The notes beneath the pieces are model-generated. The model ran no database searches. It worked only from the letters and a program-made list of their open reading frames with translations, and had not been told where the DNA came from. A DNA stretch of 64,000 bases, from contig CAYRJZ010000004.1 in NCBI GenBank assembly GCA_964424775.1, forward strand, positions 3,262-67,261, read 5' to 3'. This document shows, piece by piece, positions 21,512 to 56,263 of the stretch; positions within the stretch are counted from its first letter, which is position 1; the number at the start of each line of letters is the position of its first letter. The stretch comes from an uncultured Gammaproteobacteria bacterium (GTDB taxonomy: Bacteria > Patescibacteriota > Microgenomatia > Levybacterales > UBA12049). The position numbers were made by a program, and so were the translations under genes.

Positions 21512-21528
21512 GATTCCCATTATTCCAA

Positions 21529-21744: not shown

Positions 21745-21801
21745 CACGTATTTCATTTCTGCCTCAAATCATGTATAATATGGCTCTGAAGGAAAAAATC
21801 T

Positions 21802-21978
21802 ATGGCAAAAAAGGGTGAACATCGAATAACTTTGGGTCTCAAATGCTCTGTTTGTAAAAACAGAAATTATGTTACGACAAAAAATAAAATGGAGACTCCA
21901 GAGAAATTAAAACTCAAAAAATTCTGCAATACATGCCGAAAAGTGACTGAGCACACTGAAGTTGAAAAATTAAAGTAA
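21802..21978 (+). CDS. rpmG: 50S ribosomal protein L33
   Basis: 58-aa ORF, below the ORF-track length cutoff. MAKKGEHRITLGLKCSVCKNRNYVTTKNKMETPEKLKLKKFCNTCRKVTEHTEVEKLK. Two CxxC pairs typical of L33. Confidence 0.85.
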   Translation: MAKKGEHRITLGLKCSVCKNRNYVTTKNKMETPEKLKLKKFCNTCRKVTEHTEVEKLK

Positions 21979-21997
21979 TTTAAATTCAACTTAGCAG

Positions 21998-22030
21998 GCG
22001 TAGAGAAAGCTGTTTTCTCTACGCTTTTTT
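21998..22030 (+). terminator. Rho-independent terminator after rpmG
   Basis: gcgtagagaaagctgttttctctacgc followed by tttttt. Confidence 0.6.
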
Positions 22031-22048
22031 AGTATAATGGGTCAACAA

Positions 22049-22119
22049 AGGGGTGTGGTGAAATGGTATCACAGCAGTCTCCAAAACTGCTTTTCACGGT
22101 TCGAGTCCGTGCGCCCCTG
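22049..22119 (+). tRNA. tRNA-Trp (anticodon CCA)
   Basis: Acceptor AGGGGTG/CGCCCCT (with G-U pairs). Anticodon stem GCAGT/ACTGC with loop CTCCAAA. T-arm CACGG-TTCGAGT-CCGTG. Preceded by a TATAAT box. Confidence 0.75.
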
Positions 22120-33898: not shown

Positions 33899-34591
33899 TT
33901 ATGAGGCAGGTTTACTATGCGGTAAAATTTTTTTCATGTAATGAAGAGTCGATTTTGATAAAACAAATGAGAGACCAAGAAGTGAAAGACCAAGAGCAAG
34001 AAGTGTACCGCCAATGACATCTGTCATCCAATGTTCTCCAAGATATGGCCTTGACATGAGCATTATACTCACAAAGACAAAAACTCCTCCACTCAGTATT
34101 CCTTTAAGAAGTAATGGAAGCCGTTTGCTATGCCATATAATATAAAGAACAATAACAGAAATAAAAACAGTTCTCCCACTATGTCCTGATGGATATGATG
34201 ATTCTGATCGAACATGGAATTGAGGAAATTCAAAAGGATGTTCTGTCCTCAGCATAAATTGAGGTGGAGGTGGATGATCGACATAAAACTTTCCAAATAG
34301 CTCAATGATATGAAATAAGCCAAAACTTCCAAAAAGGACTATACCCGCAACTAATTTACGAAGTCCTAAAAGAAGAATAACAAGAACAACAGTCAGTACC
34401 TCAAAGTTCCCCATGATACTGAAAGTAGAAAAGAGAGAGTCAAATCGTCTGCTAATGTTATCCTGCAGCCTGACAGTGACATCAAAATCATTTTGTGTAA
34501 AAACGTTTTTATGAACTAAATAAGAGTAACCAATGAAAAGAAAGACGAAGAATATTCCACCAATTAAATACCAAAAATTCTTTTTGGACAT
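33899..34591 (-). CDS. PAP2-family membrane phosphatase
   Basis: PSGHS and SRPYLGEHWMTD (SR-x5-H-x3-D) PAP2 motifs. Polytopic. Confidence 0.75.
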   Translation of the reverse strand: MSKKNFWYLIGGIFFVFLFIGYSYLVHKNVFTQNDFDVTVRLQDNISRRFDSLFSTFSIMGNFEVLTVVLVILLLGLRKLVAGIVLFGSFGLFHIIELFGKFYVDHPPPPQFMLRTEHPFEFPQFHVRSESSYPSGHSGRTVFISVIVLYIIWHSKRLPLLLKGILSGGVFVFVSIMLMSRPYLGEHWMTDVIGGTLLALGLSLLGLSFVLSKSTLHYMKKILPHSKPAS

Positions 34592-34628
34592 ACATTACAT
34601 AATACAAGAGAAGAGTTATGGGAGCAAA

Positions 34629-35510
34629 TTAAAGGGAGAGACTTTTAAGATAATTTCGGAATTCTTCACTAATCTCAGGATGTGTCAGTGCAAGATCCAC
34701 TGCAGTTTTCATATACTCCAATTTATTGCCAGTGTCATAATATTTTCCATTTTCAATTTCAACTGCATATATCGGAACACCATCATCTCGAAGTAAATTA
34801 ATAGCATCAGTTAGCCAGATCTCTCCACCTTTTCCTGGCTTAAGACTCTTCAGCGCTCCAAAAATCTCCGGTGGAACAATATATGCCCCATGAGTTGCCA
34901 AGTTTGATGGTGCTGATTCAGGATCAGGCTTTTCAACTATTGATTTAATCTTTGAAACATTACCTTCCACAGGTTCTATGTCTGCAATACCGTATCGCTT
35001 CAAGTCCTCCTTCTTCTCGATTTTTACTCCTGATATAACTACTCCACCATATTTCTCATAGACAGCTTTCATTTGTGCGAGGCGTGGTGGATTGGAATAG
35101 ATAAATTCATCTCCCCATAGCACAGCAAATGCCTCATTCTCAATGACAGGCTCTGCTGCAAGAACAGGTGTCCCGTTCCCATAAGGGCCTTTCTGTCTCA
35201 CATAAATAAAGTTCGCCATCTCTGAAATTTTTCTTGTTGCTTCTAGAAGAGCTTGTTTTCCACCTGCTTCCAAGTTTTGAATAAGGTCTGCGTTTGGAAC
35301 ATCAAAATGATCTTCAATTGCTCTTTTGAGTGCTCCTGTGACGATAACAACATCTTCAATTCCTGAATTCACTGCCTCTTCAACGACATACTGAATAACT
35401 GGCTTATCAACAATTGGGAGCATTTCTTTGGGCATTGCTTTTGTCTGAGGAAGAAATCGAGTACCAAATCCGGCTGCGGGGATAACTGCTTTACGAATAG
35501 TATTTGCCAT
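34629..35510 (-). CDS. galU: UTP--glucose-1-phosphate uridylyltransferase
   Basis: N-terminal KAVIPAAGFGTRFLPQTKAMPKEMLPIVDKPVIQYVVEEA nucleotide-binding signature. Confidence 0.85.
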   Translation of the reverse strand: MANTIRKAVIPAAGFGTRFLPQTKAMPKEMLPIVDKPVIQYVVEEAVNSGIEDVVIVTGALKRAIEDHFDVPNADLIQNLEAGGKQALLEATRKISEMANFIYVRQKGPYGNGTPVLAAEPVIENEAFAVLWGDEFIYSNPPRLAQMKAVYEKYGGVVISGVKIEKKEDLKRYGIADIEPVEGNVSKIKSIVEKPDPESAPSNLATHGAYIVPPEIFGALKSLKPGKGGEIWLTDAINLLRDDGVPIYAVEIENGKYYDTGNKLEYMKTAVDLALTHPEISEEFRNYLKSLSL

Positions 35511-35678: not shown

Positions 35679-35861
35679 ATGAGTTCACCTGTAACATTTT
35701 TTCAACAAACATATGATGAACTCAAAAAAGTTACCTGGCCGAGTAGAAATGATATTATTCGCTTAACAGCAATAGTTCTATTCATCAGCGTTGCAGTAGG
35801 ACTTTATATAGGAGCGATAGACTTTATTTTGACAAAGATAACTGAAGTACTATTAAAATAA
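35679..35861 (+). CDS. secE: Preprotein translocase subunit SecE
   Basis: 60 aa with one C-terminal TM helix. KVTWPSRNDI motif. Immediately upstream of nusG. Confidence 0.75.
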   Translation: MSSPVTFFQQTYDELKKVTWPSRNDIIRLTAIVLFISVAVGLYIGAIDFILTKITEVLLK

Positions 35862-35863: not shown

Positions 35864-36457
35864 ATGGATCAACCAACAACACCTCCACAGAATGGAGCAA
35901 CTGAAGAACAAATTAAAGAAGCTGCAGCATCACCCGATGCGAAGTGGTACATCGTACATACGTATGCTGGTCACGAGAATAAAGTTGCTCGCAACCTCAA
36001 ACAGCGACTTGAAACAATGGGTTTTGAAACTCGAATTTTCGATATTATTGTTCCAACTCGCAGTACTATAAAAGTACAAGGCGGAAAGAAAGAAGAAGTT
36101 CAAGAAAAAATATTTCCAGGATATGTTCTCGTGAAGATGATCCTTGATGATGAATCTTGGCTTCTCGTTCGAACAACTCAAGGAGTTACTGCTTTTATCG
36201 GCGCAGGAAACAAACCAACTCCGATCTCTGAAAAAGAAGTTGAAGCGATTCAACAATTCATGAAGCAAGAAGAGCCTCTTTACAAGACAGCATTTGTCGT
36301 TGGTGAAGCTGTTAAGATCGTTGATGGTCCATTTGCAGATTTCTTAGGCACTATTGATAATATTGATGAAACTCGAGGTAAACTCCGGGTCCTCGTCAGT
36401 ATTTTCGGTCGTGAAACCCCCGTTGAGCTTGATTTCCTTCAAGTTCAGAAGATCTAA
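35864..36457 (+). CDS. nusG: Transcription antitermination factor NusG
   Basis: NGN domain KWYIVHTYAGHENKV. C-terminal KOW (GEAVKIVDGPFADFLGTI). Confidence 0.9.
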   Translation: MDQPTTPPQNGATEEQIKEAAASPDAKWYIVHTYAGHENKVARNLKQRLETMGFETRIFDIIVPTRSTIKVQGGKKEEVQEKIFPGYVLVKMILDDESWLLVRTTQGVTAFIGAGNKPTPISEKEVEAIQQFMKQEEPLYKTAFVVGEAVKIVDGPFADFLGTIDNIDETRGKLRVLVSIFGRETPVELDFLQVQKI

Positions 36458-36594: not shown

Positions 36595-37017
36595 ATGGCA
36601 AAAAAAATAAAAGCATTAGTAAAAGTTAATATTCCAGCTGGAGCAGCAACTCCTGCACCTCCGGTTGGTACTGCGCTTGGACCTCATGGAATCCAGATCA
36701 TGGAATTTGTGAAGGCTTTCAATGATAAGACAGCTGATCAAAGAGGAAATATTATTCCTGCAGTTATTACAATCTATGAGGATAGAACATTCTCATTCAT
36801 TACGAAAAAACCACCTATCTCAGAGATGATTAAGAAAGCTCTTGGTCGTGGAGGATCACAAAAACCAGGAAAAGAAAAAGCAGGGACACTTTCTGCGTCC
36901 CAAGTTGAACAAATCGCAAAAGACAAGCTGGAAGATCTTAATACTGACGATGTTGCGGCTGCATCTAAAATTGTTGCAGGGGTTGCACGAAGTATGGGCG
37001 TGGAGGTAGCAAGTTAA
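36595..37017 (+). CDS. rplK: 50S ribosomal protein L11
   Basis: KVNIPAGAATPAPPVGTALGPHGI matches the L11 N-terminal domain. Confidence 0.9.
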   Translation: MAKKIKALVKVNIPAGAATPAPPVGTALGPHGIQIMEFVKAFNDKTADQRGNIIPAVITIYEDRTFSFITKKPPISEMIKKALGRGGSQKPGKEKAGTLSASQVEQIAKDKLEDLNTDDVAAASKIVAGVARSMGVEVAS

Positions 37018-37018: not shown

Positions 37019-37831
37019 ATGGGAAAAATTAGAGTTAAAGCAATTGGAGATGAAGAATTAGAAAAACAGCAAGCAGAGGAAGCAAAAAAAAGATCTGCTG
37101 CAAAGAAAGCTGATAAAGAAGAAACTCAAGTCGAATCTCCTGATAATCAGGGAGAGGAAGCTGTTGACGCTCCAGTTAAAAAGACAAAAAAAGAGAAATT
37201 CCAAAAAGAAGCATTAAGTAAAAGATCTAAATCTTATACTGCAACAGCACAACTCATCGACAAAACTAAAAACTACACCCTGTCAGAAGCAGTAAAAGTA
37301 CTCCCAACACTTAAACGGGCTAAATTTGACGAAACAGTTGAACTTCACTTTACTCTCACTGAGGGAAGTATGTCTGGAAGTGTTGTTCTTCCACATGGAA
37401 CAGGCAAACAAACTCGCGTTGCAATCGCAGATGGAAGTGACGCAAAAGCAGTTGAAGACTTAGTTAAAAAAATTGAAGGCGGAACACTCGATTTTGATGT
37501 TCTTATCGCAACACCTGATGCTATGCCAAAACTCGCTCGAGTCGCTCGCGTTCTTGGACCACGAGGTCTTATGCCAAATCCAAAAAATGGGACAGTTACA
37601 CCAAAGCCACAAGAGGCTGCTGAAAAGTATGCTGGTGGACAAATGAATTATAAAAGTGAAGCAAAATTCCCTCTTCTTCATGTCGCAATTGGAAAAGTTT
37701 CATTTAGTGAAGATAAGATATTAGATAATGCAAAAAGTCTTATTGCATCTCTTGATAAGAAAAAGATTAAAAAAGCAACTTTAAAGAGCACTATGTCCCC
37801 TGCTCTCCATCTGGATATCACAAGTCTCTAA
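37019..37831 (+). CDS. rplA: 50S ribosomal protein L1 with about 70-aa K/E-rich N-terminal extension
   Basis: Core L1 motifs (FDETVELHF, GPRGLMPNPKNGTV). Canonical L1 is about 230 aa; the extra K/E-rich N-terminal segment makes this 270 aa. Confidence 0.85.
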   Translation: MGKIRVKAIGDEELEKQQAEEAKKRSAAKKADKEETQVESPDNQGEEAVDAPVKKTKKEKFQKEALSKRSKSYTATAQLIDKTKNYTLSEAVKVLPTLKRAKFDETVELHFTLTEGSMSGSVVLPHGTGKQTRVAIADGSDAKAVEDLVKKIEGGTLDFDVLIATPDAMPKLARVARVLGPRGLMPNPKNGTVTPKPQEAAEKYAGGQMNYKSEAKFPLLHVAIGKVSFSEDKILDNAKSLIASLDKKKIKKATLKSTMSPALHLDITSL

Positions 37832-37870
37832 TTTTGACTTCGTTTACCCCTTTTCATACAATATCTGTGT

Positions 37871-40210
37871 ATGTCTGAACAACTAAAATCCATTGAAAAT
37901 AGACCTAATCATGCTACTGCTTTTGATGGAGGTGTATTTACTATTGAATACTTCACCTCTGATCCCAAAGGACTTGAAGTCATAACTCGAAATAGTCTTC
38001 CTAGACGTGACAGAGTTCCTGAAGGTGATTCCCAACTTGCCGGAAGAAATGTTCGACCACTCGATATGAGTCAAATTGACAAAGAATTACTCAAAGAAGG
38101 CATGCAATCAGAAGCAGGAAAATTTGGATATAAGGCTGATTTTCCTCGTGAGCTAGTAAGACCAGAGTCAAGCCCTCTTGCAAAACTCCGCAGACAGCAA
38201 CTTAAAGGCGCAACGACAGAAGATCCACTTAAACCATACGTTCCAACAGAAGCTGAACTTCCTTTACTACAACAACGACAGGAATTAATTGAACAAGCCA
38301 AACTCCGCGATACTCTTGGTCTAAAAGTTGGTATTGAAGCAGCCCAGCTTATTGGAAATGCTCTCCATATTGACACTCGGCCGGTCAGTTATCCAGCATA
38401 TGGGAAACTTTCCCGTCCTGGAATGAATTCAGAAGTTGAAGATATTAGTAGCGCAACTGGTGTATGTGCCATTGTGAGAACTGCTGATAATAAATTTCTT
38501 TTGCAATATCGAGCAGAATTAAAAGTAGAAGAAATAGATGGTGTAAAAAAGACTTCTGGAAATGCTTCATATGGCGGAATACCAGGTGCGAGTGTAGCGG
38601 GATTATTGGACGGAAAGTTGGATCATGATAAAACACGAATCGATAGTCAAGGACAAACTGTTCATGACCGAGGCAAACTTCAGCCTGTAACGACACAGAC
38701 AATTCATCAGCGTATTACTGAAGAAGGATCACAAGAAATTGGACTTGGAGAAGGTCAAGTTGAATATAGAATTGTTGGACTTGCCCATGATAAAACCAAA
38801 CCTCACCATGAATTCCTTCTCCTTGGTTCAACAAAACTTACTGCTGAAGATGTATTAAAACAAGCTCGTCAAACAAAAAAAAATCAAAAACTCTCGGAAA
38901 AAGATTTCGAAGAAAAATTTGTCCCAATTGATGCAACAGCAGAAGCAATCGAAATTCTGCTTACAAAAGTGAAATGCCCACTTCCTCCTACCCATTTGGC
39001 AGCCTACGTTGCTGCAGGGTATGCATTGGTCCTTGAACAAGGAGGAAAAGAAGCAGCCGAAGTATGGAAAAAAGAGATGCAAGTAAAAATTGCTGAGAAC
39101 TATACTGATATAAATAAACAAGTTATGACTCACTATCAAAAACATCCAGAACTTCTTGAAAAAAAAGATGATAAGAGACCTCCTCGTAATTCACAAGGAT
39201 ATTCTGCTGATTACACACCATCCGAACAAGGACTTCCGACATTTGATGCAGAAGTTATTCGTACAAGACTTGTCAAACCTGAAATGTCTGAACAAATAGA
39301 AGTAGATAAATTCGAAAAGACATCCAAGCCAGATAAAATATGGATGCTCGATATTGACGGTGTTATTACTAACGCAACTTCTCACGAAATTGAGCAGCCA
39401 ATTATCATTGACACCATACTCAAGTCTCTCCGCAATGGTGAGCCCGTTGCACTCAATACAGGACGCACATTGAATTTCGCTCTCCAACATGTTGTACCAG
39501 AACTTCTGAATGCAGGACTTACAGATGAAGAATTTGCAAATTTTTACGCAGTTGGAGAAAAAGGAGCTACGACACTTTGGTATAAAGATGGAAAATTCCA
39601 TATGTGGCGTGATAAAGATCTTGTCGTCGATGAATCACTCCGGGGCGATCTAGATAAATTTGTTACTACGCTAGTTGGAGATACTATGTTTCCTGGTGAA
39701 CCCAAACCTTCAATGTTATCTCCACAGCTCAAAGAAAAACTTTCTCCTGATCTCGTAGAAAAATTCGATAATGAAGATCATATGAAGGTCTATCTTTATG
39801 CCAAAGCACTTATTGAAAGTAAAGGACTTCAAAATATTTATAGAGTTGATAAGACAAAGATTGCAGTAGATATTGAACACGCTCGTATGGGAAAACAATT
39901 AGGAGCACAAAGGATACTTGATTGGCTCTCAAGACGAAATATGGAGCCCAAGCATTTTATAGGAGTTGGAGATAGTGGCTCTGATGCACAAATGGCAGAT
40001 GAAGTATATAAAGAAATGCAGAAAAGAAGTCGATTTGGGAGACCGACAGTTCAATTTATTTTTGCAGGAAATAGAGAGTCATTCACCAAATATCTCGTCA
40101 GCCAAGACATACCTACTCCTCAATATTCCGTTGTCTATACAGCTCCAGATAGTGAAAAAAAGCCGGTAACAGATAAAAGTTTTGCAGACTATCTTGCTTC
40201 TCAACACTAA
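37871..40210 (+). CDS. Large multidomain hypothetical protein with C-terminal HAD-superfamily phosphatase domain, inserted between rplA and rplJ
   Basis: HAD motif I DIDGVIT (about 39350-39370), motif II LNTGR, motif IV GVGDSGSDAQ (about 39962-39997). A middle region has a weak Nudix-like signature (FLLQYRA...GGIPG...QRITEEGSQEIG). N-terminal about 200 aa unassigned. Confidence 0.6.
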   Translation: MSEQLKSIENRPNHATAFDGGVFTIEYFTSDPKGLEVITRNSLPRRDRVPEGDSQLAGRNVRPLDMSQIDKELLKEGMQSEAGKFGYKADFPRELVRPESSPLAKLRRQQLKGATTEDPLKPYVPTEAELPLLQQRQELIEQAKLRDTLGLKVGIEAAQLIGNALHIDTRPVSYPAYGKLSRPGMNSEVEDISSATGVCAIVRTADNKFLLQYRAELKVEEIDGVKKTSGNASYGGIPGASVAGLLDGKLDHDKTRIDSQGQTVHDRGKLQPVTTQTIHQRITEEGSQEIGLGEGQVEYRIVGLAHDKTKPHHEFLLLGSTKLTAEDVLKQARQTKKNQKLSEKDFEEKFVPIDATAEAIEILLTKVKCPLPPTHLAAYVAAGYALVLEQGGKEAAEVWKKEMQVKIAENYTDINKQVMTHYQKHPELLEKKDDKRPPRNSQGYSADYTPSEQGLPTFDAEVIRTRLVKPEMSEQIEVDKFEKTSKPDKIWMLDIDGVITNATSHEIEQPIIIDTILKSLRNGEPVALNTGRTLNFALQHVVPELLNAGLTDEEFANFYAVGEKGATTLWYKDGKFHMWRDKDLVVDESLRGDLDKFVTTLVGDTMFPGEPKPSMLSPQLKEKLSPDLVEKFDNEDHMKVYLYAKALIESKGLQNIYRVDKTKIAVDIEHARMGKQLGAQRILDWLSRRNMEPKHFIGVGDSGSDAQMADEVYKEMQKRSRFGRPTVQFIFAGNRESFTKYLVSQDIPTPQYSVVYTAPDSEKKPVTDKSFADYLASQH

Positions 40211-40257
40211 AATTTTACTTGTATCCTCCGCTGTAAAGATTAATAATAGATATATTC

Positions 40258-41397
40258 ATGTCCGCTTTTTGCATTTTTAAATGTCTTTCTGGACGAGCAG
40301 ATGCATATGTACTTCTTCTCGTTGGAGCTGCGATGGCAGCTGGAGCATTTATGGTAGGGGGAGTTCTGCCGGAGAATAGAAAATCTGCTAATCAAGCCGC
40401 TACAATTACCCCCTCACCTATTTCTCAAGAAATAGAAGATTCAAATACGTATGAGTCGGATATTTTCCTTCAAGAAAACCTGTCTACTGTCTCTTCTGGA
40501 GAAGCTGATCTTGTAGTCGTAAATTTTTCACTTACCGACCGCAATGGTATCGTTAAAACAACTTTTGATCCCGGTGAACGGATTTATCCAAAAGTTACAT
40601 ACAATAATATTGGATCAGCTCGTATTCTCTCTGAATCAGGATATATCAATAGTCAAATATATGATAATCAACAGACTCCTGCACAGCAAAATCAACAATC
40701 AGATGTCAATGTCTGGATGAGGAATGGTAGATATGGTGTTCAGTACATAAAAACCTATGAGGCTCGACCCGATGGGCTCAACAGCGCTTTTTACAAGGGA
40801 GAAAGGTACTGGATAAGAAATCGTTCTGGGACATTTACCGCCCGAGTGTATTTAAATTATGATCACGGTGGAATAGAAACAAACTTTGAAAATAACCAAC
40901 GTACTGTTACGTATACTATCCGCAATCTCCCTTCACCTACTCCAACAAAAAAACCTACCCCAACGCCAACAAAAACAGCAAGTAATGTAGGAGATGTAAA
41001 TGCTGCACCGAATAGTAATAGCTGTGGTGGAAAATATAGTTTTAACAACCCGATTGGATTGAACTTTGGTGACCCAGCTTGTACTTTCACAAAAGACAAA
41101 CTCTATTCCCTCCTCAAACAACACGATTCACAAAATGCTGATTACTGGTTTTACACTGTTATCCCTTGTGAAAGTCCAGGATACAATGCTAATTTGTATT
41201 ACCGATGCGGACCGGCAGGATGTACACCTGATCCCTCAGGTGCATGGGGACTTTTCCAAATGGGACGAGGAAGAAACGGTCAATATGATCATGGTGATGT
41301 CGCTTGGCCAAGACAAGTTACAAATGCAACAACTTATAGACAAAATATTGGCTGGGGCGGCTGGAGGTACTGGGCGTGTGCTCAATCTCGGTGGTAA
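40258..41397 (+). CDS. Secreted protein with PT-rich linker and C-terminal lysozyme/transglycosylase-like Cys-rich domain (tentative)
   Basis: N-terminal TM/signal. PSPTPTKKPTPTPTKT linker. C-terminal CESPGYN ... GAWGLFQM resembles the catalytic E-S ... G-L-x-Q arrangement of SLT/Rpf-like transglycosylase domains. 8 Cys. Confidence 0.45.
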   Translation: MSAFCIFKCLSGRADAYVLLLVGAAMAAGAFMVGGVLPENRKSANQAATITPSPISQEIEDSNTYESDIFLQENLSTVSSGEADLVVVNFSLTDRNGIVKTTFDPGERIYPKVTYNNIGSARILSESGYINSQIYDNQQTPAQQNQQSDVNVWMRNGRYGVQYIKTYEARPDGLNSAFYKGERYWIRNRSGTFTARVYLNYDHGGIETNFENNQRTVTYTIRNLPSPTPTKKPTPTPTKTASNVGDVNAAPNSNSCGGKYSFNNPIGLNFGDPACTFTKDKLYSLLKQHDSQNADYWFYTVIPCESPGYNANLYYRCGPAGCTPDPSGAWGLFQMGRGRNGQYDHGDVAWPRQVTNATTYRQNIGWGGWRYWACAQSRW

Positions 41398-41930
41398 TTA
41401 TGAATATATTTAATAAAATACGATCATACCTTTTGACACTGAATCCATTTATTTGGATAGGGATTTCACTCCTTCTTCTTGGTGGCATTTTTTTCTTTTC
41501 ATTTCAAACAGATATACCAACTCCTATAACAGAGACAAAGACCATTTCTCCTTCTACTTCTTCTCCTCTTATCTATCCTCGTGACAAGACAGAAAAGTTA
41601 CTAGAAATTGTTGGAAAAAGAAAATCTCTTGACGCAGTAGATCAGGAAATACGAGATGAACTTATATCGTCTCTTGGTTCCGTGTCAGGTATTCTTTATC
41701 AGACAAAAGAATTCAGTATTGAATATGTAAAAGAGCCGGATACTTTTATGGTCGGCATACTCACAACAAATATTATTCCTGCACAACAACAAGCAGTTGA
41801 ATGGCTGAAAGAAAAAGGTATAAGTTATCAGGGCATTTGCCACCTCCCTGTTATTTTCTACCCTTCTTTTCCAAAAGAAGACATTAAAGTTGATTCTCTT
41901 TTATTTAATCCAATTCCTGAGGGATGTTGA
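41376..41930 (+). CDS. Membrane-anchored hypothetical protein
   Basis: N-terminal TM, then a globular domain. Overlaps the upstream gene by 22 nt. Confidence 0.4.
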   Translation: MCSISVVIMNIFNKIRSYLLTLNPFIWIGISLLLLGGIFFFSFQTDIPTPITETKTISPSTSSPLIYPRDKTEKLLEIVGKRKSLDAVDQEIRDELISSLGSVSGILYQTKEFSIEYVKEPDTFMVGILTTNIIPAQQQAVEWLKEKGISYQGICHLPVIFYPSFPKEDIKVDSLLFNPIPEGC

Positions 41931-41940: not shown

Positions 41941-41969
41941 TTGACTCTCCCTTACTTTTCTGGTATGAT
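41941..41969 (+). promoter_or_regulatory. Sigma70-like promoter (TTGACT-N17-TATGAT) for rplJ-rplL
   Basis: ttgact ctcccttacttttctgg tatgat read from the sequence. Placed just after the inserted genes. Confidence 0.55.
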
Positions 41970-41985
41970 ACGTGAGTCCTAAGAC

Positions 41986-42136
41986 AGTAAGCATACAAAT
42001 AAGTCTTACCGAGGAGAAGCATCTATTTACTTGCACTCCTCGTGGAGTGTTTTTTTATGGAACGGAGACCGAAGGTCGAGTTCACTTGCGAATAAAATGA
42101 GACAAGTGTGGATAGAAAAATAAAACATTTTTCTTA
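41986..42136 (+). promoter_or_regulatory. rplJ (L10) leader with attenuator-like hairpin plus U-tract
   Basis: cgaggag-N19-ctcctcg followed by tggagtgttttttt (42010-42057). Autoregulatory L10 leaders occupy this position in many bacteria (established knowledge). Confidence 0.45.
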
Positions 42137-42700
42137 GTGAGAAAAATATACATTATGAACAACGATACAAAAAAAGTCAGTCAAAATAGACAAAAGAAAG
42201 AAACCCTTGTAGGTGAACTTTCTGAGAGAGTTGAGAGATCAAAGGCATTTGTTTTTACAAATTACCAAGGTCTTACTCATCAGCAAATTGAAGGTCTTAA
42301 AAGAGCCTCAAAGAAAATTAATGCTGAGTATGTTGTCGTCAAAAACACCCTCATGCTTCGAGCTCTTGATAAATTTAACTTATCACCGGAGGACAAAAAA
42401 CATTTTGAGCAACCAACTGCAACTCTCTTTATTTATGACGATGTCATTGAACCTCTTAAGGAGCTTCAGAATGTCGTCAAACAATTCCAACTTCCAGCTG
42501 TAAAAATGGGAATTTTTGAAAATCACCCAATTTCTGCAGAAGAGGTTGTAAAATTATCCAATCTTCCACCACTTCCAGTTCTTCGTGGACAACTTCTCGG
42601 CATGATGATGTCACCAGTACAAGGACTTCATCGAGCACTTACCTGGAATATGCAATCTCTCGTTATGACACTGAATGCAATCGCCCAGAAAAAGGGTTAA
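42137..42700 (+). CDS. rplJ: 50S ribosomal protein L10
   Basis: [22 protein letters not shown]10 N-terminal signature. Precedes rplL. Confidence 0.85.
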
Positions 42701-42719: not shown

Positions 42720-43109
42720 ATGGCAAAACTAACTAAAGAAGAATTAATGCAAGCAATTGAAGAAATGTCTGTTCTCGAACTTTCTGATCTCGTTAAAGCG
42801 CTCGAGGAAAAATTTGGCGTTTCTGCAGCAGCAATGGCTGTAGCAGCAGCACCAGCAGCAGGTCCAGCAGCAGATGCAGCACCAGCTGAAGAAAAGACTT
42901 CATTCAATGTTGTTCTTGCTAGTGCAGGTGGAAACAAGATCGCAGTTATTAAAGCTATTCGAGAACTCGTTCCAACACTTGGTCTTAAAGAAGCTAAGGA
43001 TCTTGCTGACACAGCACCTAAAGAAGTTCTTACAGGCGTTAATAAGCAGACTGCTGATGAAGCAAAGGAAAAACTTACTGCAGCAGGCGCAACTGTTGAA
43101 CTCAAGTAA
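42720..43109 (+). CDS. rplL: 50S ribosomal protein L7/L12
   Basis: [34 protein letters not shown], an Ala-rich hinge, and C-terminal [20 protein letters not shown]. Confidence 0.9.
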
Positions 43110-43110
43110 C

Positions 43111-43167
43111 AAAAAACCTCGTCCTCATTATTATCTCAGATATAAGAAGGTCGAGGTTTTTTTTGTG
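43111..43167 (+). terminator. Rho-independent terminator after rplL
   Basis: aacctcgtcctc ... gaaggtcgagg followed by ttttttttg. Confidence 0.6.
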
Positions 43168-43209
43168 GTTAGTTGACGATGAATTACCAATCATTTAGGC
43201 TAAATATAC

Positions 43210-44532
43210 ATGATATTTTTTCACAAAAAAGAAATTTATATTATCGTATTTTTTGTCCTTTGTATTGCATTGTTGACTTTATTAACAAAAAATTCACTAG
43301 AGACTCGAAGCAAAGCATCCGACTCAACTCACATACTTGAAGCAGAGTCTGGCATTATTTCTTCCTCCTCCGAACTTATTACTGACTCATCAGCTTCAGG
43401 AGGAAAAGCAGTGAGATTTTTCGGTCAACAGATAACATCTACTCCCACTCCATCTCCTTCTTTGCCTACATCATATGGGCCACAAGGAACACCGATCTCA
43501 TGTGACACCATACCTCATTCCCGTAGAGTTCCAGTTACAACGTTTGAATCTCTTCAGTCATCTATCAACACCGCTCTCCCAGGCGACCTTATCGTTCTTG
43601 CTCCCGGCACATATACAGGTCAATATCTCCGTATTAGTGGTAAAAAAGGTACCGCAACCCAACCCATAACAATTTGTGGAACAAAAAATGCAACAGTTGA
43701 GGCAACTGCCCAGGAAGGAAATTCGCATGGTATATGGCTCCAAAATTCAGCAAATATAACTTTATATAACTTCAATATTCGTAAAGGAAATTTTAGTATC
43801 TTTATCGAATGGAGTGATAATATAACTCTAAATTACATGGATGTAGGATTCTCAGGACTTGCCCTCATTCATGCATGGAAAGATAGCAAGAATTTGAAAG
43901 TTACTAACTCTATTCTTCATGACGCAGGGATAAAAGATTCAGAAGTTGGTGAAGGAATATACCTTGGTTCTAATAATTGGTGGTGGGATGATCCAGGATT
44001 TGAGTCACCTGATAAAAATGATAATTTTGAATTTATGTATAACAAATGTTTTAACATCACAGCTGAGTGTGTTGATATCAAGGAAGGAGTAACCGGAGGA
44101 ATAATAAAAGGGAATTATTTCGATGGATCAGGCATGATAGGGATGAATGCTCCCTCCTCCTGGTCTAGAGATGGAACGAGTGATGACAATTATATTGACT
44201 CTTGGGTAGATATTAAAGGAAATTCTATTATTATCTCAGAAAACTATGGTGACTGGCTCCCCTTTTCTGATACCAATAATGATGCAAAAACAGAATCAGA
44301 TGGCTTTGAAGTTACCGGTAGTATTTCCGGTTGGGGCCAAAAAAATATATTTTCAAAAAATTATGGGAATGGTCGAACTATTACTCAGTATAGAAGTGGC
44401 CTGACACGTCCAGCAGGACCAAGCCGAACAGGAGTCTGGTATACCGATAATGTAACAAATGTCGGGAATAAGATTACCTGTGACAATATTTTTGTAAATT
44501 TCCAAAATAGTTCACGAATACCTTGCCAATAA
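43210..44532 (+). CDS. Secreted right-handed parallel beta-helix (pectin-lyase-fold) protein
   Basis: N-terminal TM/signal. Successive NITLYNFNI / NITLNYMDV / VTNSILHDAG beta-helix repeat pattern. Confidence 0.55.
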   Translation: MIFFHKKEIYIIVFFVLCIALLTLLTKNSLETRSKASDSTHILEAESGIISSSSELITDSSASGGKAVRFFGQQITSTPTPSPSLPTSYGPQGTPISCDTIPHSRRVPVTTFESLQSSINTALPGDLIVLAPGTYTGQYLRISGKKGTATQPITICGTKNATVEATAQEGNSHGIWLQNSANITLYNFNIRKGNFSIFIEWSDNITLNYMDVGFSGLALIHAWKDSKNLKVTNSILHDAGIKDSEVGEGIYLGSNNWWWDDPGFESPDKNDNFEFMYNKCFNITAECVDIKEGVTGGIIKGNYFDGSGMIGMNAPSSWSRDGTSDDNYIDSWVDIKGNSIIISENYGDWLPFSDTNNDAKTESDGFEVTGSISGWGQKNIFSKNYGNGRTITQYRSGLTRPAGPSRTGVWYTDNVTNVGNKITCDNIFVNFQNSSRIPCQ

Positions 44533-45629
44533 TGAAAAAAATATTATTCTTTTTCCTTTTACACCTTTTTCTATTTGTACCCTTTTCTCATACTCCTGTA
44601 TTTAGTCAAACTACTTGTCCGCAAGTGTCTTCAGCAACTGGATCAGTACTTTTACATTTTAATATCACAACATCAGGTCAATATGCATTCTGGAGTAGAT
44701 TAAAAACAGATAGTAACTTGAATAATTCTTACTACCTTCAAGTGGATAATCAGTGTGCAATAAATGTTGGAGATGGTTCTCTTTCGTCGACTGAATACAC
44801 GTGGATTAACTTTAAAGATGGCAATCCTGCCAGTAAAATACTCCTTTCACTCACCACCGGTTCACATACACTCAAATTAATAGGAAAAGATCCTGGAGTT
44901 ATTGTTGATAATGTTCTAATTACTTCTGATCTTAAGTGTACACCAACTGGTCTAGGTGGAAATTGCCAGCAAATTACTACTACACCAACAGTGTACACCA
45001 CTCCGACACCGACACGCACACCGACTCCAACTCCTGCTATTATTCCAACAAGCACCCTCGCTCCCACACCTACTCCGGTAGTAAATGGAATAACTTTCAA
45101 TCTCGAACTCAAATTACAAGGGATAGGTAAAGGAGGTGATAACGCCAATCCAGTGTCTATTGGAAATATGAATCCTATTCATCCGCAAAGAAATATCACA
45201 ATTCAACTTTTTGATGCCAACGGAAAAAAGATTTCAGAAGGAAGCGGAACAGCAAATTTTATTTGGGATAACGGATCTTTCTTCGGGAGAATTTCACTTG
45301 TTCAACGTCCCCCAGTTGGTAATTACCTTGCTGTCATTTCCAGCCCTCAGTTTTTAAATAGACGCTATCAAAAAATAATTTCATTAACTCAAAATCAAAA
45401 CGACGTTTATCTGGACACTGTTACTCTTATTGGCTCAGATGCTAATAATGACAATTCCGTTAATATACTTGACTATAATGTAATCGCTAGTTGTTACAGT
45501 GATCTTCTCCCTCCTATTGATTGTGATAATCTACGAAAATTACAAGCAGATATCACAGACGATGGAATTGTAAATCAATTCGATTACAATTTCTTTATGA
45601 GAAATGCTGGAAATTATCGAGGCGAGTAA
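44523..45629 (+). CDS. Secreted protein with TP-rich linker and C-terminal dockerin-like domain
   Basis: N-terminal signal. TPTPTRTPTPTPAIIPTSTLAPTPTP linker. Two dockerin-type Ca-binding repeats DANNDNSVNILDYNVI and DITDDGIVNQFDYNFF. Confidence 0.5.
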   Translation: MPIMKKILFFFLLHLFLFVPFSHTPVFSQTTCPQVSSATGSVLLHFNITTSGQYAFWSRLKTDSNLNNSYYLQVDNQCAINVGDGSLSSTEYTWINFKDGNPASKILLSLTTGSHTLKLIGKDPGVIVDNVLITSDLKCTPTGLGGNCQQITTTPTVYTTPTPTRTPTPTPAIIPTSTLAPTPTPVVNGITFNLELKLQGIGKGGDNANPVSIGNMNPIHPQRNITIQLFDANGKKISEGSGTANFIWDNGSFFGRISLVQRPPVGNYLAVISSPQFLNRRYQKIISLTQNQNDVYLDTVTLIGSDANNDNSVNILDYNVIASCYSDLLPPIDCDNLRKLQADITDDGIVNQFDYNFFMRNAGNYRGE

Positions 45630-45791: not shown

Positions 45792-46802
45792 ATGGCAGCC
45801 CGAGTAGAACACCTACTCCCGCCCCCCGTTGAAACCAAACACCATCCACTTGGATTTTCTTTTGCCCTTTATGAACCGACGAACATCGTATGGAACACAG
45901 ATGATGTAAAAGCGAAAATTGGTGTAAGAAAAGTCAGACGAGCAAACTCTTTGGAAACGCCTGAGTATATGCTCGCTCACGTTGCAAAAAAATTATTCCA
46001 TTCAGATGAACAAATAGACCTTCTTGGGGTAGCATCAAGTTTTCCAGTTGGTGAAAATTTATCCGGCCTCATGATAGATGTTCTTGACCTAAACGTCAGG
46101 AATAATATTGATATTTATGCTGCATGCTCTGGCTATGCCCGTTTTCTTCTTCATATTGCTGAACTCGCACAAGACCAAGATCTTAATGGGTGGAATATTG
46201 GCTTTGCCTCCACTGAAAGATACTCACCTTTTCTTAAAAAAGGTACATTCGATACAGGGATCTTCACTGATGGAGCAATTGGCCTAAGTAATTTAAGATA
46301 TGGCGAGAATTTCCGTATCTTAAGCGCAGTAGGAAGATCTCTTGATCCTGAGACAAGTACTTCTTTGACAATGCCAGTTGATAGAACATTGATGGAACCT
46401 CCCTTTATTGAGGAGCCGGTTCCTCCTTCCTCTACTGGAATGTTTGAGATGAATGGCCCTGTTGTCTACAGAAACATCATCGATCCACAGCGCGGAGTGC
46501 CAACACTCATTAACGATGTACTTGAGGTAGCCGAGTGCACACCTGATGATATTGATTATCTTATTCCACATCAAGGGAGCAGTAAGACCAATAGAGGATT
46601 AATTCATGCTCTTCCTGAATTCGAAGGTAAAATCATAGAAGATATTACAGACGGCAATCTTTCCAGTGGATCAATTCCAAGAGCATTAAGTAGACTTACT
46701 CCGTCTCATGATCCTGTTCGAATACTCAATGTTGGTTTTGGTGCTGGCCTGTATGGTGTAGCAGCTATTACTGAGCACGGAAACCTTGCTTCACAAAGGT
46801 GA
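45792..46802 (+). CDS. Beta-ketoacyl-ACP synthase III (FabH)-like thiolase-superfamily enzyme
   Basis: Active-site AACSGY (Cys). FTDGAIG, IPHQGSSKTNRGLI (His), GNLSSGSIP (Asn) and NVGFGAGLYG segments match the FabH/KAS III pattern. Confidence 0.65.
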   Translation: MAARVEHLLPPPVETKHHPLGFSFALYEPTNIVWNTDDVKAKIGVRKVRRANSLETPEYMLAHVAKKLFHSDEQIDLLGVASSFPVGENLSGLMIDVLDLNVRNNIDIYAACSGYARFLLHIAELAQDQDLNGWNIGFASTERYSPFLKKGTFDTGIFTDGAIGLSNLRYGENFRILSAVGRSLDPETSTSLTMPVDRTLMEPPFIEEPVPPSSTGMFEMNGPVVYRNIIDPQRGVPTLINDVLEVAECTPDDIDYLIPHQGSSKTNRGLIHALPEFEGKIIEDITDGNLSSGSIPRALSRLTPSHDPVRILNVGFGAGLYGVAAITEHGNLASQR

Positions 46803-47212: not shown

Positions 47213-47247
47213 AGGCCCTTGCAGGGCATCGTAGGGCCTCGTTTTTT
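47213..47247 (+). terminator. Terminator-like hairpin plus T-run in a 450-nt non-coding gap
   Basis: aggccct-tgcagggcatcgt-agggcct then cgtttttt. Overlaps the nominal TTG start of the next ORF. Confidence 0.4.
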
Positions 47248-47272
47248 AATAAGTTTTGCTATAATTCACTTA

Positions 47273-47677
47273 TTGGATTCTGTGTATATCGATAAAATTG
47301 CATTAGTTGATTTAAAAAACAGAAAATTTCTTGGAACACTCAGTCATGGAAAGGATGTATGGTATGTACCCGGTGGAAAAAGAGAAAAAGATGAGACTGA
47401 TGAAGCAACACTTGTACGGGAAATTCACGAAGAACTTGGAGTAGAAATTATTCCTGACACGCTCGAATTATTTGGTATTTTTAAGGCACAAGCACATGGA
47501 AAACCAAAGGGGACGTTCGTACGAAATACTTGTTATAGAGCTCAGTATAATGGAATTCCGCAACCTATGAGTGAGATTGCTAAAATTGGTTATTTTAACT
47601 CAAATGATGCCTCAAAATTCTCAGAGGTAAATCAGCAAATGATAAAAGACCTCTTATTAAAAGATCTTATCGACTAA
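47273..47677 (+). CDS. NUDIX hydrolase
   Basis: Complete Nudix box GGKREKDETDEATLVREIHEELGVEI (G-x5-E-x7-REUxEExGU). The start is uncertain (TTG at 47273 or GTG at 47282); the ORF-track start at 47219 lies inside the hairpin. Confidence 0.7.
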   Translation: MDSVYIDKIALVDLKNRKFLGTLSHGKDVWYVPGGKREKDETDEATLVREIHEELGVEIIPDTLELFGIFKAQAHGKPKGTFVRNTCYRAQYNGIPQPMSEIAKIGYFNSNDASKFSEVNQQMIKDLLLKDLID

Positions 47678-51722: not shown

Positions 51723-52610
51723 CTAAGAATGAGTGTGATACTCTGCTCTGTGATTTTCTTTGATCTTTTTATAATCAGGATCCTGGAAGTGGTCTTTCAG
51801 AAATGCCATCGTCTCTTTCGGTGGCTGAGTATTAACGAATACGCCAGTCCCCACCTCAAACCCTCCTGTTGTTTTCTCCCGCGGAATAAGCCGGATATAC
51901 CAGTCCCCTCCTGGGTAAATATAGAAGTTATATGGGAATTCATCACCATGTCGTGCACTCATTATTTTTATGAGTTTGGAAAAAATACCAGCAAAATCAT
52001 GGATCTCATCATCTGTTATTTCGCCAAAGAGACGTCCATGTCGTTTTGGTGCTATCCACACCTCATCCGGCCATGAAGAGTACTGAGGACAAAAAATTGA
52101 GAAATGGGAAGTCTGCACTCCTTTTTCATCATCATGTGCAACACTTTGAAGTCGTGGGATCTCCAGAAGGACTTTCTCCGGCACAACTGCTATCTGTGTA
52201 TGTGAATGCGGAATACTCTCCCCTGCTTTTGGGCCGTGATTGTGGAAAATATAGACCTGACCTTTGTGGGCATGTTCATTATATCGCTGCCTATAAACCT
52301 GAAAAATTAGCTCAATTTGTTCAAGTGAAAAAGCATCAAATGAGGTATGGTGATCAGGAGTATTGAGAACAAGCTCATGATGAGTGGTAAAGGGAAATTT
52401 GTTCGGAATAACCCGGACTTGCCAATGCATATCTCCTTTCTCTCCTCCTATCCGATAATATTCTTCCTCCCGGCTTTCCCGTCCGGGACAAAAAGGACAT
52501 GCTGGCTCTGTTCCATTGGCTACATCTGGTCTTTTTGCTCGCCTTGGAGCAGATATTACCCATTTTTTCGAAATTGGATTTTGAAGGAAAGAAAAGGACT
52601 TATCACTCAT
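51723..52610 (-). CDS. galT: Galactose-1-phosphate uridylyltransferase family (HIT-like nucleotidyltransferase)
   Basis: SAPRRAKRP, zinc-site ACPFCPG and active-site FHNHGPKAGESIPHSHTQI align with GalT's SPHRAKRP / C-x-x-C / HPHGQ motifs. Confidence 0.7.
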   Translation of the reverse strand: MSDKSFSFLQNPISKKWVISAPRRAKRPDVANGTEPACPFCPGRESREEEYYRIGGEKGDMHWQVRVIPNKFPFTTHHELVLNTPDHHTSFDAFSLEQIELIFQVYRQRYNEHAHKGQVYIFHNHGPKAGESIPHSHTQIAVVPEKVLLEIPRLQSVAHDDEKGVQTSHFSIFCPQYSSWPDEVWIAPKRHGRLFGEITDDEIHDFAGIFSKLIKIMSARHGDEFPYNFYIYPGGDWYIRLIPREKTTGGFEVGTGVFVNTQPPKETMAFLKDHFQDPDYKKIKENHRAEYHTHS

Positions 52611-55451: not shown

Positions 55452-56263
55452 AATTTTAGTTTCTTCAAAAAGTCAGGGTCGCGAACATTTGACTCTCCTG
55501 CTTCATTCCCAGCAATTTCTTTTTTCCCAGTAAAATCCTTAAATTTGTTCTTGTCATTTGGTGTGTACTCCTCAACAACAAGTCCATCAACCATATGAAA
55601 AATCTTAGTTGCATATTTCAGATACTCCAGATCATGAGTAACCATAATAATTGTCTTCCCTTCTTCAACAAGAGAAGTAAAAGTCTGAATGAGTTCTTTA
55701 CCAGAAACAGTATCAAGATTTCCTGTCGGCTCATCAGCAACGATTATAACCGGATCTGTCATCATCGCACGGGCAAGACTAATTTTCTGCTGTTGTCCTG
55801 AAGAAAGCTCTGTTGGAGTATATTCTGCCCATTGAGCGAGTCCAACTTTTTCAAGTGATGCCATAGCTTTTTTATGAATCTCCTCAGTTTCTTTATCCAG
55901 AAGATGGAGAGGAAAGGTAATATTGTCAAAAACATTAAAAGACCCTACCCACAATGCCTGCTGATAAATCATACCGACTTTATGTCGTCTAAATAGTGCA
56001 CGCTCATCATCAGTCATTCCATAGAAATCCTGTCCCTCAACCATGACTTTTCCTGATGTTGGCGGCTCAAGGCCTAACAGTGTGTGCAACATCGTTGATT
56101 TACCACATCCTGAAGGACCAAAAATAATCACAAATTCACCCGTTTTAATAGTAATGTTAATCCCTTTCAATACTTCAACAGGTCCAGTCCCAACCGTAAA
56201 GGACTTTCTTAAATCTTTTGTCTCAATGAGTACTCTTTTTTCAGTTGTCATATTAATTTGCAA
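55448..56263 (-). CDS. ABC transporter ATP-binding protein (MacB/LolD-type)
   Basis: Walker A GPSGCGKST, signature LSGGQQQKISLARAM, Walker B IIVADEPTGNLD. Confidence 0.9.
   Translation of the reverse strand: MQINMTTEKRVLIETKDLRKSFTVGTGPVEVLKGINITIKTGEFVIIFGPSGCGKSTMLHTLLGLEPPTSGKVMVEGQDFYGMTDDERALFRRHKVGMIYQQALWVGSFNVFDNITFPLHLLDKETEEIHKKAMASLEKVGLAQWAEYTPTELSSGQQQKISLARAMMTDPVIIVADEPTGNLDTVSGKELIQTFTSLVEEGKTIIMVTHDLEYLKYATKIFHMVDGLVVEEYTPNDKNKFKDFTGKKEIAGNEAGESNVRDPDFLKKLKL

Follow-up and report, generated by a model that had tools for sequence, protein, structure and literature searches.

A reshuffled gene island between rplA and rplJ in Levybacteria carries a predicted NUDT22-like Nudix-HAD fusion protein and a putative cell wall protein pair

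The gap between the ribosomal protein genes rplA and rplJ was analyzed in a stretch of 64,000 nucleotides (nt) of contig CAYRJZ010000004.1 (assembly GCA_964424775.1), referred to here as the window. Genes were called from the open reading frame (ORF) map of the window together with Pfam, and all genes of this block lie on the + strand (Table 1). In the conserved cluster order, the rplJ leader and rplJ come directly after rplA; in the window, three same-strand ORFs intervene, and the three nonribosomal genes reported here by a first-pass annotation were borne out by the ORF map and Pfam. We refer to these genes as ORF-A, which encodes an N-terminal module (N-module) with a predicted Nudix fold joined to a HAD-IIB module, ORF-B, and ORF-C. 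The end of rplA had been placed correctly at 37831, but the rplJ start given at 42137 is an upstream GTG; the start is most likely the ATG at 42155, since the resulting 181 amino acids (aa) equal the orthologue length, and the gap from rplA to rplJ therefore measures 4323 nt. The product of ORF-C, described as a membrane-anchored protein of 184 aa, does have a transmembrane anchor but measures 176 aa from its ATG, which is the length of its 87%-identical orthologue.

ORF-A starts 39 nt past rplA. A promoter-like element ends 8 nt upstream of its ATG, and no Shine-Dalgarno sequence is visible, which suggests that the ORF-A mRNA is leaderless or near-leaderless, if the element indeed functions as a promoter. 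The element recurs at identical spacing in L005, a relative with 91% identity, but is not conserved in relative L004; its derivation as a duplicate of the rplJ promoter was rejected by eye, the hexamers alone being in common. A terminator scan detected no + strand terminator-like hairpin between rplA and position 41941, and transcriptional read-through from rplKA into the island is possible. The G+C content is 0.37 to 0.43 throughout, the island resembling its flanks without a step at the borders. No flanking direct or inverted repeats were found in a repeat scan, no tRNA genes lie at the site, and no integrase or transposase families were matched by the three island proteins in Pfam or NCBIfam.

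Table 1. Features of the window from secE to the terminator after rplL
Feature	Coordinates	Strand	Basis
secE	35679-35861	+	ORF map; SecE Pfam match on L005 orthologue
nusG	35864-36457	+	ORF map; NusG Pfam match on L005 orthologue
rplK	36595-37017	+	ORF map; L11 Pfam match on L005 orthologue
rplA (L1, 270 aa, N-terminal Lys/Glu-rich extension), end of secE-nusG-rplK-rplA block	37019-37831	+	Pfam Ribosomal_L1, E 2.4e-35
ORF-A promoter-like element TTGACT-N17-TACAAT	37834-37862	+	Consensus scan, 10/12
ORF-A, 779 aa, predicted NUDT22-like Nudix-fold module fused to HAD-IIB module	37871-40210	+	Homologues, AlphaFold2 model, Foldseek
ORF-A predicted Nudix-fold module, aa ~150-470	38318-39280	+	Approximate bounds, from secondary structure of the model rather than the Foldseek alignment
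ORF-A HAD-IIB domain, phosphatase/phosphomutase type, aa 489-779	39335-40210	+	TIGR01484, PDB profile search, Foldseek, motifs
ORF-B, 379 aa	40258-41397	+	ORF map, AlphaFold2, Foldseek
ORF-C, 176 aa from ATG 41400 (184 aa from GTG 41376)	41400-41930	+	ORF map; homologues
rplJ promoter TTGACT-N17-TATGAT with extended TG	41941-41969	+	Consensus scan; kept in relatives
L10 leader	41960-42064	+	Rfam RF00557, 29.6 bits, E 0.088
L10 leader attenuator/terminator GCACUCCUCGUGGAGUG plus U7	42033-42057	+	Terminator scan
rplJ (L10, 181 aa from ATG)	42155-42700	+	Pfam Ribosomal_L10, E 1.5e-21; orthologue lengths
rplL (L7/L12)	42720-43109	+	Pfam L12 domains
Hairpin terminator after rplL	43111-43162	+	Inverted repeat

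The junction was compared among relatives with 74 to 100% identity in L11, and a metagenome scan with L10 gave only 6 loci, which narrows the comparison (loci are designated by L numbers). Downstream of rplA we found the order A-B-C in the window and L005; A followed by a reverse-strand gene of 239 aa in L004 and L047; a HAD gene and then an N-module gene in L006 and L007; B-C and a 630-aa protein (X630) in L054; and, in L055 and L057, the order B-C-X211-N-module-HAD-X578, with rplJ absent within >6 kb. The site is empty in L049, in which 230 nt separate rplA from rplJ, and the genes upstream of rplJ differ again in L050 and L051. At 51% protein identity (L004 and L006), ORF-A components still adjoin rplA. 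The rplA-rplJ gap in this clade of Levybacteria is thus a lineage-specific, reshuffled hot spot of varying content: the interruption noted in the first-pass annotation is lineage-specific, as L049 illustrates, but it is not a single insertion, many relatives having a reshuffled island. An unannotated family of ~575- to 630-aa proteins recurs downstream of rplA (L054 7990-9882, L055 7460-9196, and L057 8155-9882) and is absent from the window; the L054 copy is 34 to 36% identical to those of L055 and L057 and had no match in Pfam or NCBIfam.

The rplJ promoter and L10-leader-like attenuator hairpin reported upstream of rplJ are both present, but they are not fresh, as had been supposed. We compared the leader by Rfam matches in five relative loci and by an alignment of ten relatives (A5). 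The window leader scored 29.6 bits against L10_leader RF00557 (gathering score, 44), and the relatives scored 45.1 (L049, at or above the gathering score), 41.1 (L006), 33.2 (L004), 32.7 (L054), and 29.9 (L005). The motif, GUCCUAAGACAG-hairpin-CCGAGG, is of the L10(L12)4-site type. In 10/10 aligned relatives, the region upstream of rplJ keeps the promoter TTGAC.-N17-TAT.AT, this motif, and the terminator GCACUCCUC..GGAGUGU7, and the insertions are all placed between the rplA stop codon and the rplJ promoter. Because promoter and leader are conserved in relatives that include the uninterrupted L049, they are ancestral; rplJL has its own promoter and attenuator, and ribosomal protein regulation would therefore be independent of the island. 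In the window, ~98 extra nt (42058-42154) lie between the leader terminator and the rplJ ATG, opening with a 12-codon mini-ORF (ATGGAACGG...TAA) straight after the T-run. A similar spacer is present in L050; it is missing in L005 and most relatives, in which the U-tract of the terminator runs directly up to the ATG of rplJ (TTTTTTTATGG) without a Shine-Dalgarno sequence.

A search covering 5.8 billion proteins yielded 35 ORF-A homologues, one with 91% identity, three with 51 to 52% (Levybacteria or Patescibacteria), and others with ~33 to 37%; these last are mostly 650 to 760 aa long, and a few of ~430 to 480 aa span the N-terminal ~60% only. Conservation was scored on an alignment of 30 sequences (A1), to which the counts of family members below refer. 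The C-terminal part of ORF-A is a HAD domain, in which phosphatase and mutase are indistinguishable from sequence. Both parts of the HAD signature noted in the first-pass annotation (DIDGVIT ... GDSGSD) were recovered, and motifs I (D494-x-D496, in DIDGVIT), II (T530, in NTGR), III (K675), and IV (GDSGSD, 700-705; GDSxSD in the family) are intact in 30/30 members. ORF-A itself scored below threshold against TIGR01484 HAD-IIB (28.2 bits; cutoff, 41.8; E 1.8e-6) and PF08282 Hydrolase_3 (13.5 bits; cutoff, 20.9; E 0.062), and Hydrolase_3 was matched by 14/30 members (best E 1.2e-6). A family profile built from A1 recovered HAD matches only among PDB sequences, including 1wr8 and 4qjb. In the AlphaFold2 model made from A1 (mean predicted local distance difference test [pLDDT] score, 81), a Rossmannoid core is supported in which the C2B cap follows motif II and precedes motif III, and Foldseek against PDB ranked HAD-IIB proteins (E 1e-9 to 1e-8) directly below the top match: trehalose-6-phosphate phosphatase 5dxl, the phosphomannomutase-like alpha-phosphoglucomutase 4bnd, ISN1, and PH1421 1wr8 (template modeling [TM] score, 0.70). 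Profile searches and structure prediction thus both backed the HAD assignment. HAD-IIB domains usually act on sugar phosphates.

The top Foldseek match of the same model was human NUDT22 (5lor_A; E 4.8e-10, probability 1.00, ~300 aligned columns), with 14 to 15% identity to ORF-A (5lor/5lf9) and a TM score of 0.50 on the target. The model supports a Nudix alpha/beta/alpha fold in the N-module, so that the Nudix-like middle region claimed earlier held up as a predicted fold but not as a Pfam NUDIX match. We located a G-loop, PGASVAG, at aa 238-244 and a Nudix helix that reads ITEEGSQEIGL in the window protein against ILKEAGEELGL in the family consensus, with E285 and E289 invariant. Compared with the Nudix box GX5EX7REUXEEXGU, the window protein has E-E-G-S-Q-E-I-G-L as the second half and a loop-interrupted first half; the second half is near-canonical, K-E-x-x-E-E-x-G-U, in 26/30 members. 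An invariant CPLPPTH motif lies at aa 369-375 and a long helix at aa 373-424, and further polar residues invariant over the 30 sequences are Q212, R214, N231, H312, E314, E348, and H375. Since the two Nudix-helix Glu residues and many polar residues are invariant, the N-module is likely catalytic. An N-module profile (A2) found nothing relevant among PDB sequences, and Pfam, NCBIfam, the PDB profile search, and Foldseek gave no similarity of ORF-A to known (p)ppGpp hydrolases or MutT-type nucleotide sanitizers.

At E <= 1e-3, the N-module profile matched 236 cluster representatives among 1.84 billion. The family members recovered are mostly from metagenome-assembled genomes (MAGs) of the candidate phyla radiation (CPR)/Patescibacteria, and the nearest relatives of ORF-A, ORF-B, and ORF-C are MAG proteins labeled Candidatus Levybacteria/Levyibacteriota or Patescibacteria; from these names, the window is taken to be part of a Candidatus Levybacteria (Patescibacteria/CPR) chromosome. 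Many MAG records with ORF-A family members or HAD-only relatives (L013, L014, L018, L020, and others) are titled "uncultured Gammaproteobacteria bacterium," which, given their gene content, looks like a placeholder or wrong taxonomy. The N-module occurs alone (~350 to 480 aa), in HAD fusions (~650 to 790 aa), and in permuted HAD-first fusions (P0130 and P0162). As adjacent genes, the two modules were found in L006 (7091-9398; a 285-aa HAD and then a 465-aa N-module, the order reversed relative to ORF-A) and, with the N-module first, in L055 and L057. Fusion in both orders and adjacency as separate genes would place both activities on one pathway, and this argues strongly for a coupled function of the two modules.

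Ribosomal genes were never found beside the ~35%-identity homologues of ORF-A at the 16 loci examined. Six independent contexts of ORF-A homologues (L001/L002, L003, L009, L012, L016, and L060) have flanking genes for GDP-mannose 4,6-dehydratase/epimerase (PF16363, up to 524 bits). They also hold, in varied sets, genes for glycosyltransferases (GT2/GT4), a Wzm/Wzt ABC exporter, a mannose-6-phosphate-isomerase-type cupin, small canonical Nudix proteins, and glycerophosphodiester phosphodiesterase (GDPD); the GDPD gene adjoins the ORF-A homologue in L001 and L003. In the window itself, genes for a GalU-like UTP-glucose-1-phosphate uridylyltransferase (307.6 bits against TIGR01099, whose cutoff is 326.8) and for a PAP2 phosphatase lie at 33899-35510 on the - strand, divergent from secE, a pair conserved in L005, L006, and L054, and a GalT-like gene lies at 51723-52610. 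With these GalU-like and GalT-like genes, the window organism probably makes UDP-hexoses, which are candidate substrates of ORF-A.

No matches to ORF-B or ORF-C were obtained in Pfam and NCBIfam, and an exact look-up of ORF-B gave no entry. The AlphaFold2 model of ORF-B (pLDDT 77, >90 in the C-terminal domain) has an N-terminal hydrophobic helix at aa 15-32, within a transmembrane or signal anchor assigned to aa 15-36, followed by a disordered stretch and by a beta-sandwich that spans aa 85-221 (nt 40510-40920). Next come a PT linker at aa 222-245 and a six-Cys C-terminal domain of 130 aa (aa 250-379; nt 41005-41394) with three predicted disulfides. Foldseek matched the beta-sandwich to CARDB 3idu, the carbohydrate-binding domain of Wzt (6o14), and accessory domains of GH3 proteins. 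In the C-terminal domain, a helix (aa 279-305) ends in C304-E305-S306 and is followed by beta-hairpins with GAWGLFQM and then by two helices, so that the pattern of SLT/lysozyme-like proteins (Glu-Ser at a helix end, a beta-hairpin, and G-L-x-Q) is present; over 57 sequences, conservation is 90% or more at G331, L332, Q334, and M335. The domain occurs in at least 57 CPR proteins, with DUF11, S8 subtilase, M15 peptidase, amidase_3, and phosphoesterase as N-terminal fusion partners. The SLT family PF01464 did not match the C-terminal domain of the window protein; in several members of the ORF-B family it aligned exactly over ES...GLxQ, with E values of 0.0044 to 0.18, all below threshold. In hhalign comparisons with single lysozyme sequences, the probabilities were 0.3% for hen egg white, 21.6% for human, and 1.4% for T4 lysozyme, and the alignment with human lysozyme, which pairs ES-GYN and G(I/L)FQ(I/M), is a suggestive, motif-level alignment only. 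Foldseek against PDB and BFVD returned beta-sandwich matches only, lysozyme being absent from the top 50, and an ORF-B profile retrieved nothing for the C-terminal domain among PDB sequences. The secreted, Cys-rich, lysozyme/transglycosylase-like protein of the first-pass annotation is accordingly matched in its anchor or secretion signal, PT linker, six Cys residues, and ES...GLFQM, and its enzymatic likeness reached no more than subthreshold SLT scores.

ORF-C has five detectable homologues. It consists of an N-terminal transmembrane anchor, a Pro/Thr/Ser-rich linker, and a domain of ~110 aa ending in NPIPEGC. This layout recurs in all homologues, whose linkers are of low complexity and whose ~110-aa domains have ...P(I/L)P(E/D/N)GC as their last residues. 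In every case examined (L005, L053, L054, L055, and L057), the C-type gene lies directly downstream of a B-type gene. In L053 (1-9974), a Cys-rich domain of the ORF-B type closes a 728-aa protein, behind which come an ORF-C homologue and five small genes without annotation. All of these lie immediately past PrgI, TraC-like, and VirB4-like (AAA_10/TraG P-loop) genes beside dnaN-dnaA. Judged by its genes, this cluster looks like a type IV secretion system (T4SS)-like apparatus with a dedicated putative muralytic enzyme.

We favor, with a probability of roughly 0.6, the explanation that the island is a junction hot spot in which genes for nucleotide-sugar turnover (ORF-A) and for the cell wall (ORF-B and ORF-C) have lodged at a natural operon boundary. 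The cluster would consist of two separate units, secE-nusG-rplK-rplA and promoter plus L10 leader-rplJ-rplL, with their junction acting as a permissive hot spot in Levybacteria. The NUDT22-like module of ORF-A would most likely cleave UDP- or GDP-hexose to a nucleoside monophosphate (NMP) and sugar-1-phosphate, and the HAD-IIB module would most likely dephosphorylate or isomerize the released sugar phosphate; jointly, they may drain, recycle, or regulate nucleotide-sugar pools for envelope glycans. Nucleotide-sugar hydrolysis with dephosphorylation or isomerization of the sugar phosphate is the best-supported chemistry because of the NUDT22 fold, the HAD-IIB domain, and the GDP-mannose dehydratase contexts. 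ORF-B would act outside the cytoplasm, with a glycan- or cell-surface-binding beta-sandwich and a disulfide-rich domain bearing motifs of the lysozyme/lytic transglycosylase type, and ORF-C would be its obligate membrane-anchored partner, which may regulate or inhibit it.

Several observations weigh against this explanation. Pfam NUDIX (PF00293) was matched neither by ORF-A (at E 0.1) nor by any of the 30 members (at E 0.01), and family profiles did not recover NUDT22 from PDB sequences. The Nudix box departs from type in its first half, into which a loop of 20 to 35 residues is inserted, and Gln replaces the first Glu of "EE" in ORF-A of the window and its closest relatives. The substrate of ORF-A is not readable from its sequence, and in about half of the nonribosomal contexts of its homologues, the neighbors have no relation to glycans (UvrC/SBP5, twice; FtsZ; racemase/Mur ligase; competence genes; TyrRS). 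The lysozyme-like assignment of ORF-B, made from motifs and subthreshold matches, is plausible but unproven. Finally, components of A, B, and C follow rplA jointly in two gene orders, and this may reflect a functional link instead of mere joint lodging.

Such a link is the substance of the first alternative, in which A, B, and C (with the ~600-aa protein in relatives) form one cell envelope module, A tuning nucleotide-sugar supply and B-C binding or remodeling the glycan. The two orders in which A components and the B-C pair follow rplA (window and L005 versus L055 and L057) persist where identity is ~31% for A and ~56% for B, the beta-sandwich of ORF-B is similar to the O-antigen-binding domain of Wzt, and ORF-A homologues elsewhere stand beside Wzm/Wzt exporters. 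However, A had neither B nor C nearer than 8 kb in L001 and L003, and there was no A near the pair of B-type domain and C in L053, while L054 has B-C without A and L004 and L006 have A without B-C; we consider a single module unlikely.

Similarly improbable is a second alternative, which concerns ORF-A alone: its Nudix-fold module might act on another diphosphate-linked substrate (ADP-ribose, CDP-glycerol or other CDP-alcohols, capped RNA, or a lipid-linked intermediate) or might be a noncatalytic ligand binder that regulates the HAD domain. The atypical Nudix box unmatched by Pfam, the change from Glu to Gln at one metal ligand position in the clade of the window, and the GDPD neighbors in L001 and L003, which hint at glycerol-phosphate chemistry, are consistent with it, as is the very broad substrate range of Nudix enzymes, exemplified by YzgD (PMC5627462). 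It is countered by the best structural match, which is NUDT22 and not an ADP-ribose or cap hydrolase, by the invariance of the two helix Glu and many polar residues in 30 sequences, and by the recurrent association with GDP-mannose dehydratase.

To our knowledge, CPR cells are unable to make nucleotides de novo. The ORF-A family could be an NUDT22-like nucleoside diphosphate (NDP)-hexose hydrolase, obligatorily coupled to HAD-IIB, that salvages UMP or GMP and hexose from the cell's own or a host's nucleotide sugars, its repeated lodging behind rplKA in one Levybacteria clade then reflecting selection for growth-coupled expression. We hold this proposal to be speculative and rather less likely still; if true, the role of ORF-A would parallel that of human NUDT22 in pyrimidine salvage.

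The first-pass annotation had proposed that the Nudix-like/HAD fusion is cotranscribed with translation genes and has a nucleotide or alarmone housekeeping role coupled to ribosome synthesis, which we now find doubtful, to the point of giving it little credence. The same-strand start of ORF-A so close to rplA, the lack of any terminator-like hairpin from rplA up to the promoter of rplJ, and the rplA-adjacent position held at 51% protein identity (L004 and L006) are in its favor, and the contribution of human NUDT22 to pyrimidine salvage (PMC10101856) makes a role in nucleotide supply conceivable. Yet the ~35% homologues lie away from ribosomal genes at 16/16 loci, often in clusters for GDP-sugars and glycans with GDP-mannose dehydratase, glycosyltransferases, or Wzm-Wzt; the content of the gap varies, L054 lacking A; ORF-A has its own promoter-like element and is unlike known (p)ppGpp hydrolases or MutT-type sanitizers; and HAD-IIB domains are typically sugar-phosphate enzymes. 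A recently acquired mobile element or prophage remnant, which the variable gene content of the site and the B-type domain with C in the T4SS-like cluster of L053 might suggest, is very improbable and was rejected, given G+C content equal to the flanks, the repeats, site tRNA, and island-encoded integrase or transposase that were looked for and not found, and an island shared among relatives with divergence comparable to that of the flanking ribosomal genes.

The remaining genes of the window are ordinary chromosomal ones, among them topoisomerase I, PBP2, a family A polymerase, and an O-antigen-ligase-like gene. rpoB and rpoC do not follow rplL. Past the rplL terminator, two secreted proteins are encoded at 43110-45629, the first of 440 aa with a weak match of the Chondroitinase_B/pectate lyase type and the second of 368 aa, which contains a PT linker and matches dockerin near threshold. 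A small canonical Nudix hydrolase with MutT-like matches (47219-47677) lies 4 kb past rplL, after a FabH-like gene (45792-46802), and the FabH-like/Nudix pair is also found after rplL in L004 and L005. Elsewhere, a giant ORF of 2387 aa with many Kelch repeats and FN3 domains (56253-63416, - strand) adjoins a MacB/FtsX-type permease gene (53343-55451), and Rfam identified a cluster of four tRNA genes at 21438-22119 (+ strand).

An NUDT22-like family whose N-module lacks a Pfam model, which is obligatorily tied to HAD-IIB and lodged at the rplA-rplJ junction in one CPR clade, appears to be new. The island does not overturn current understanding; it indicates that the secE-nusG-rplKA-rplJL block can open at an internal operon boundary and keep changing, now seen in CPR. 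It flags a compact unannotated enzyme family, with a testable hypothesis of nucleotide-sugar turnover or salvage in organisms of minimal metabolism, and a widespread, CPR-specific, Cys-rich, putatively muralytic domain with a dedicated membrane partner.

Among known systems, human NUDT22, an atypical Nudix hydrolase of UDP-glucose and UDP-galactose, is the closest solved structure to the ORF-A N-module, like it a sequence outlier of the superfamily. NUDT22 yields UMP and glucose-1-phosphate from UDP-glucose and stands apart from other Nudix proteins in sequence (PMC10101856). The conversion of NDP-hexose to NMP and hexose-1-phosphate (PMC10101856) fits the glycan cluster context of ORF-A homologues. 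The two differ in that identity is 14 to 15%, with no detectable sequence-profile relationship; in that ORF-A alone has an extra N-terminal region of ~150 aa, the CPLPPTH motif, the long helix, and the HAD-IIB fusion; and in that NUDT22 is an animal protein, whereas ORF-A is bacterial (CPR) and its activity predicted. With HAD-IIB enzymes (trehalose-6-phosphate phosphatase, eukaryote-type phosphomannomutase, Lactococcus alpha-phosphoglucomutase 4bnd, PH1421/phosphoglycolate phosphatase, and Cof), ORF-A shares the four motifs, including Asp+2, and the C2B cap fold, but it scores below curated thresholds and its domain is part of a 779-aa fusion. The GDP-mannose mannosyl hydrolase Gmm/NudD (WcaH) adjoins gmd-fcl in enterobacterial colanic acid clusters and probably regulates GDP-sugar supply. 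It is a Nudix enzyme placed, like the ~35%-identity homologues of ORF-A, beside GDP-mannose 4,6-dehydratase, a likeness of context; unlike ORF-A, it is small and of canonical Nudix type, cleaves a glycosidic bond, and has no HAD domain.

The first-pass annotation regarded a Nudix-like/HAD fusion within the ribosomal protein operon as undescribed; Nudix/HAD fusions themselves are not unprecedented, because YzgD of Paenibacillus thiaminolyticus is a bifunctional HAD pyridoxal phosphatase and Nudix hydrolase (PMC5627462, citing Tirrell et al. 2006). YzgD combines in one polypeptide a HAD phosphatase and a Nudix diphosphatase, the latter active on NDP-sugars and alcohols; its Nudix domain is recognizable and annotated as a Nudix family hydrolase, and its context is a thiamin/thiaminase operon (PMC5627462). 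It is unrelated to the NUDT22-like family of ORF-A. The rplJ leader resembles the transcription attenuation type of L10 leader (RF00557) in its AAGACAG...CCGAGG motif and terminator, the orthologous leader of L049 reaching the gathering score; it differs in the lower score of the window copy (29.6 bits versus 44) and the extra ~98 nt between terminator and start codon. ORF-B resembles SLT/lysozyme-like proteins (PF01464; VirB1 type) in the ES at the end of a long helix, the beta-hairpin, GLFQM, and the occurrence of a B-type domain in a T4SS-like cluster, and differs in its subthreshold family matches, the absent structural match, three predicted disulfides, and compact 130 aa. As for the gap itself, rplK-rplA and rplJ-rplL of Mycobacterium tuberculosis are presumably split by mmaA and other envelope genes, an assumption that a literature search did not confirm. 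In Gammaproteobacteria and Bacilli, insertions at operon boundaries of the ribosomal/RNA polymerase cluster comprise tusDCB, bfd-bfr, nrdHEF, and ilv-leu, and synteny erodes further afterwards (PMC8046335). The rplA-rplJ island resembles these insertions in the lodging of unrelated genes between transcription units and in later decay, as in L055 and L057, and differs from them in lying in CPR, in its other gene set, and in being reshuffled.

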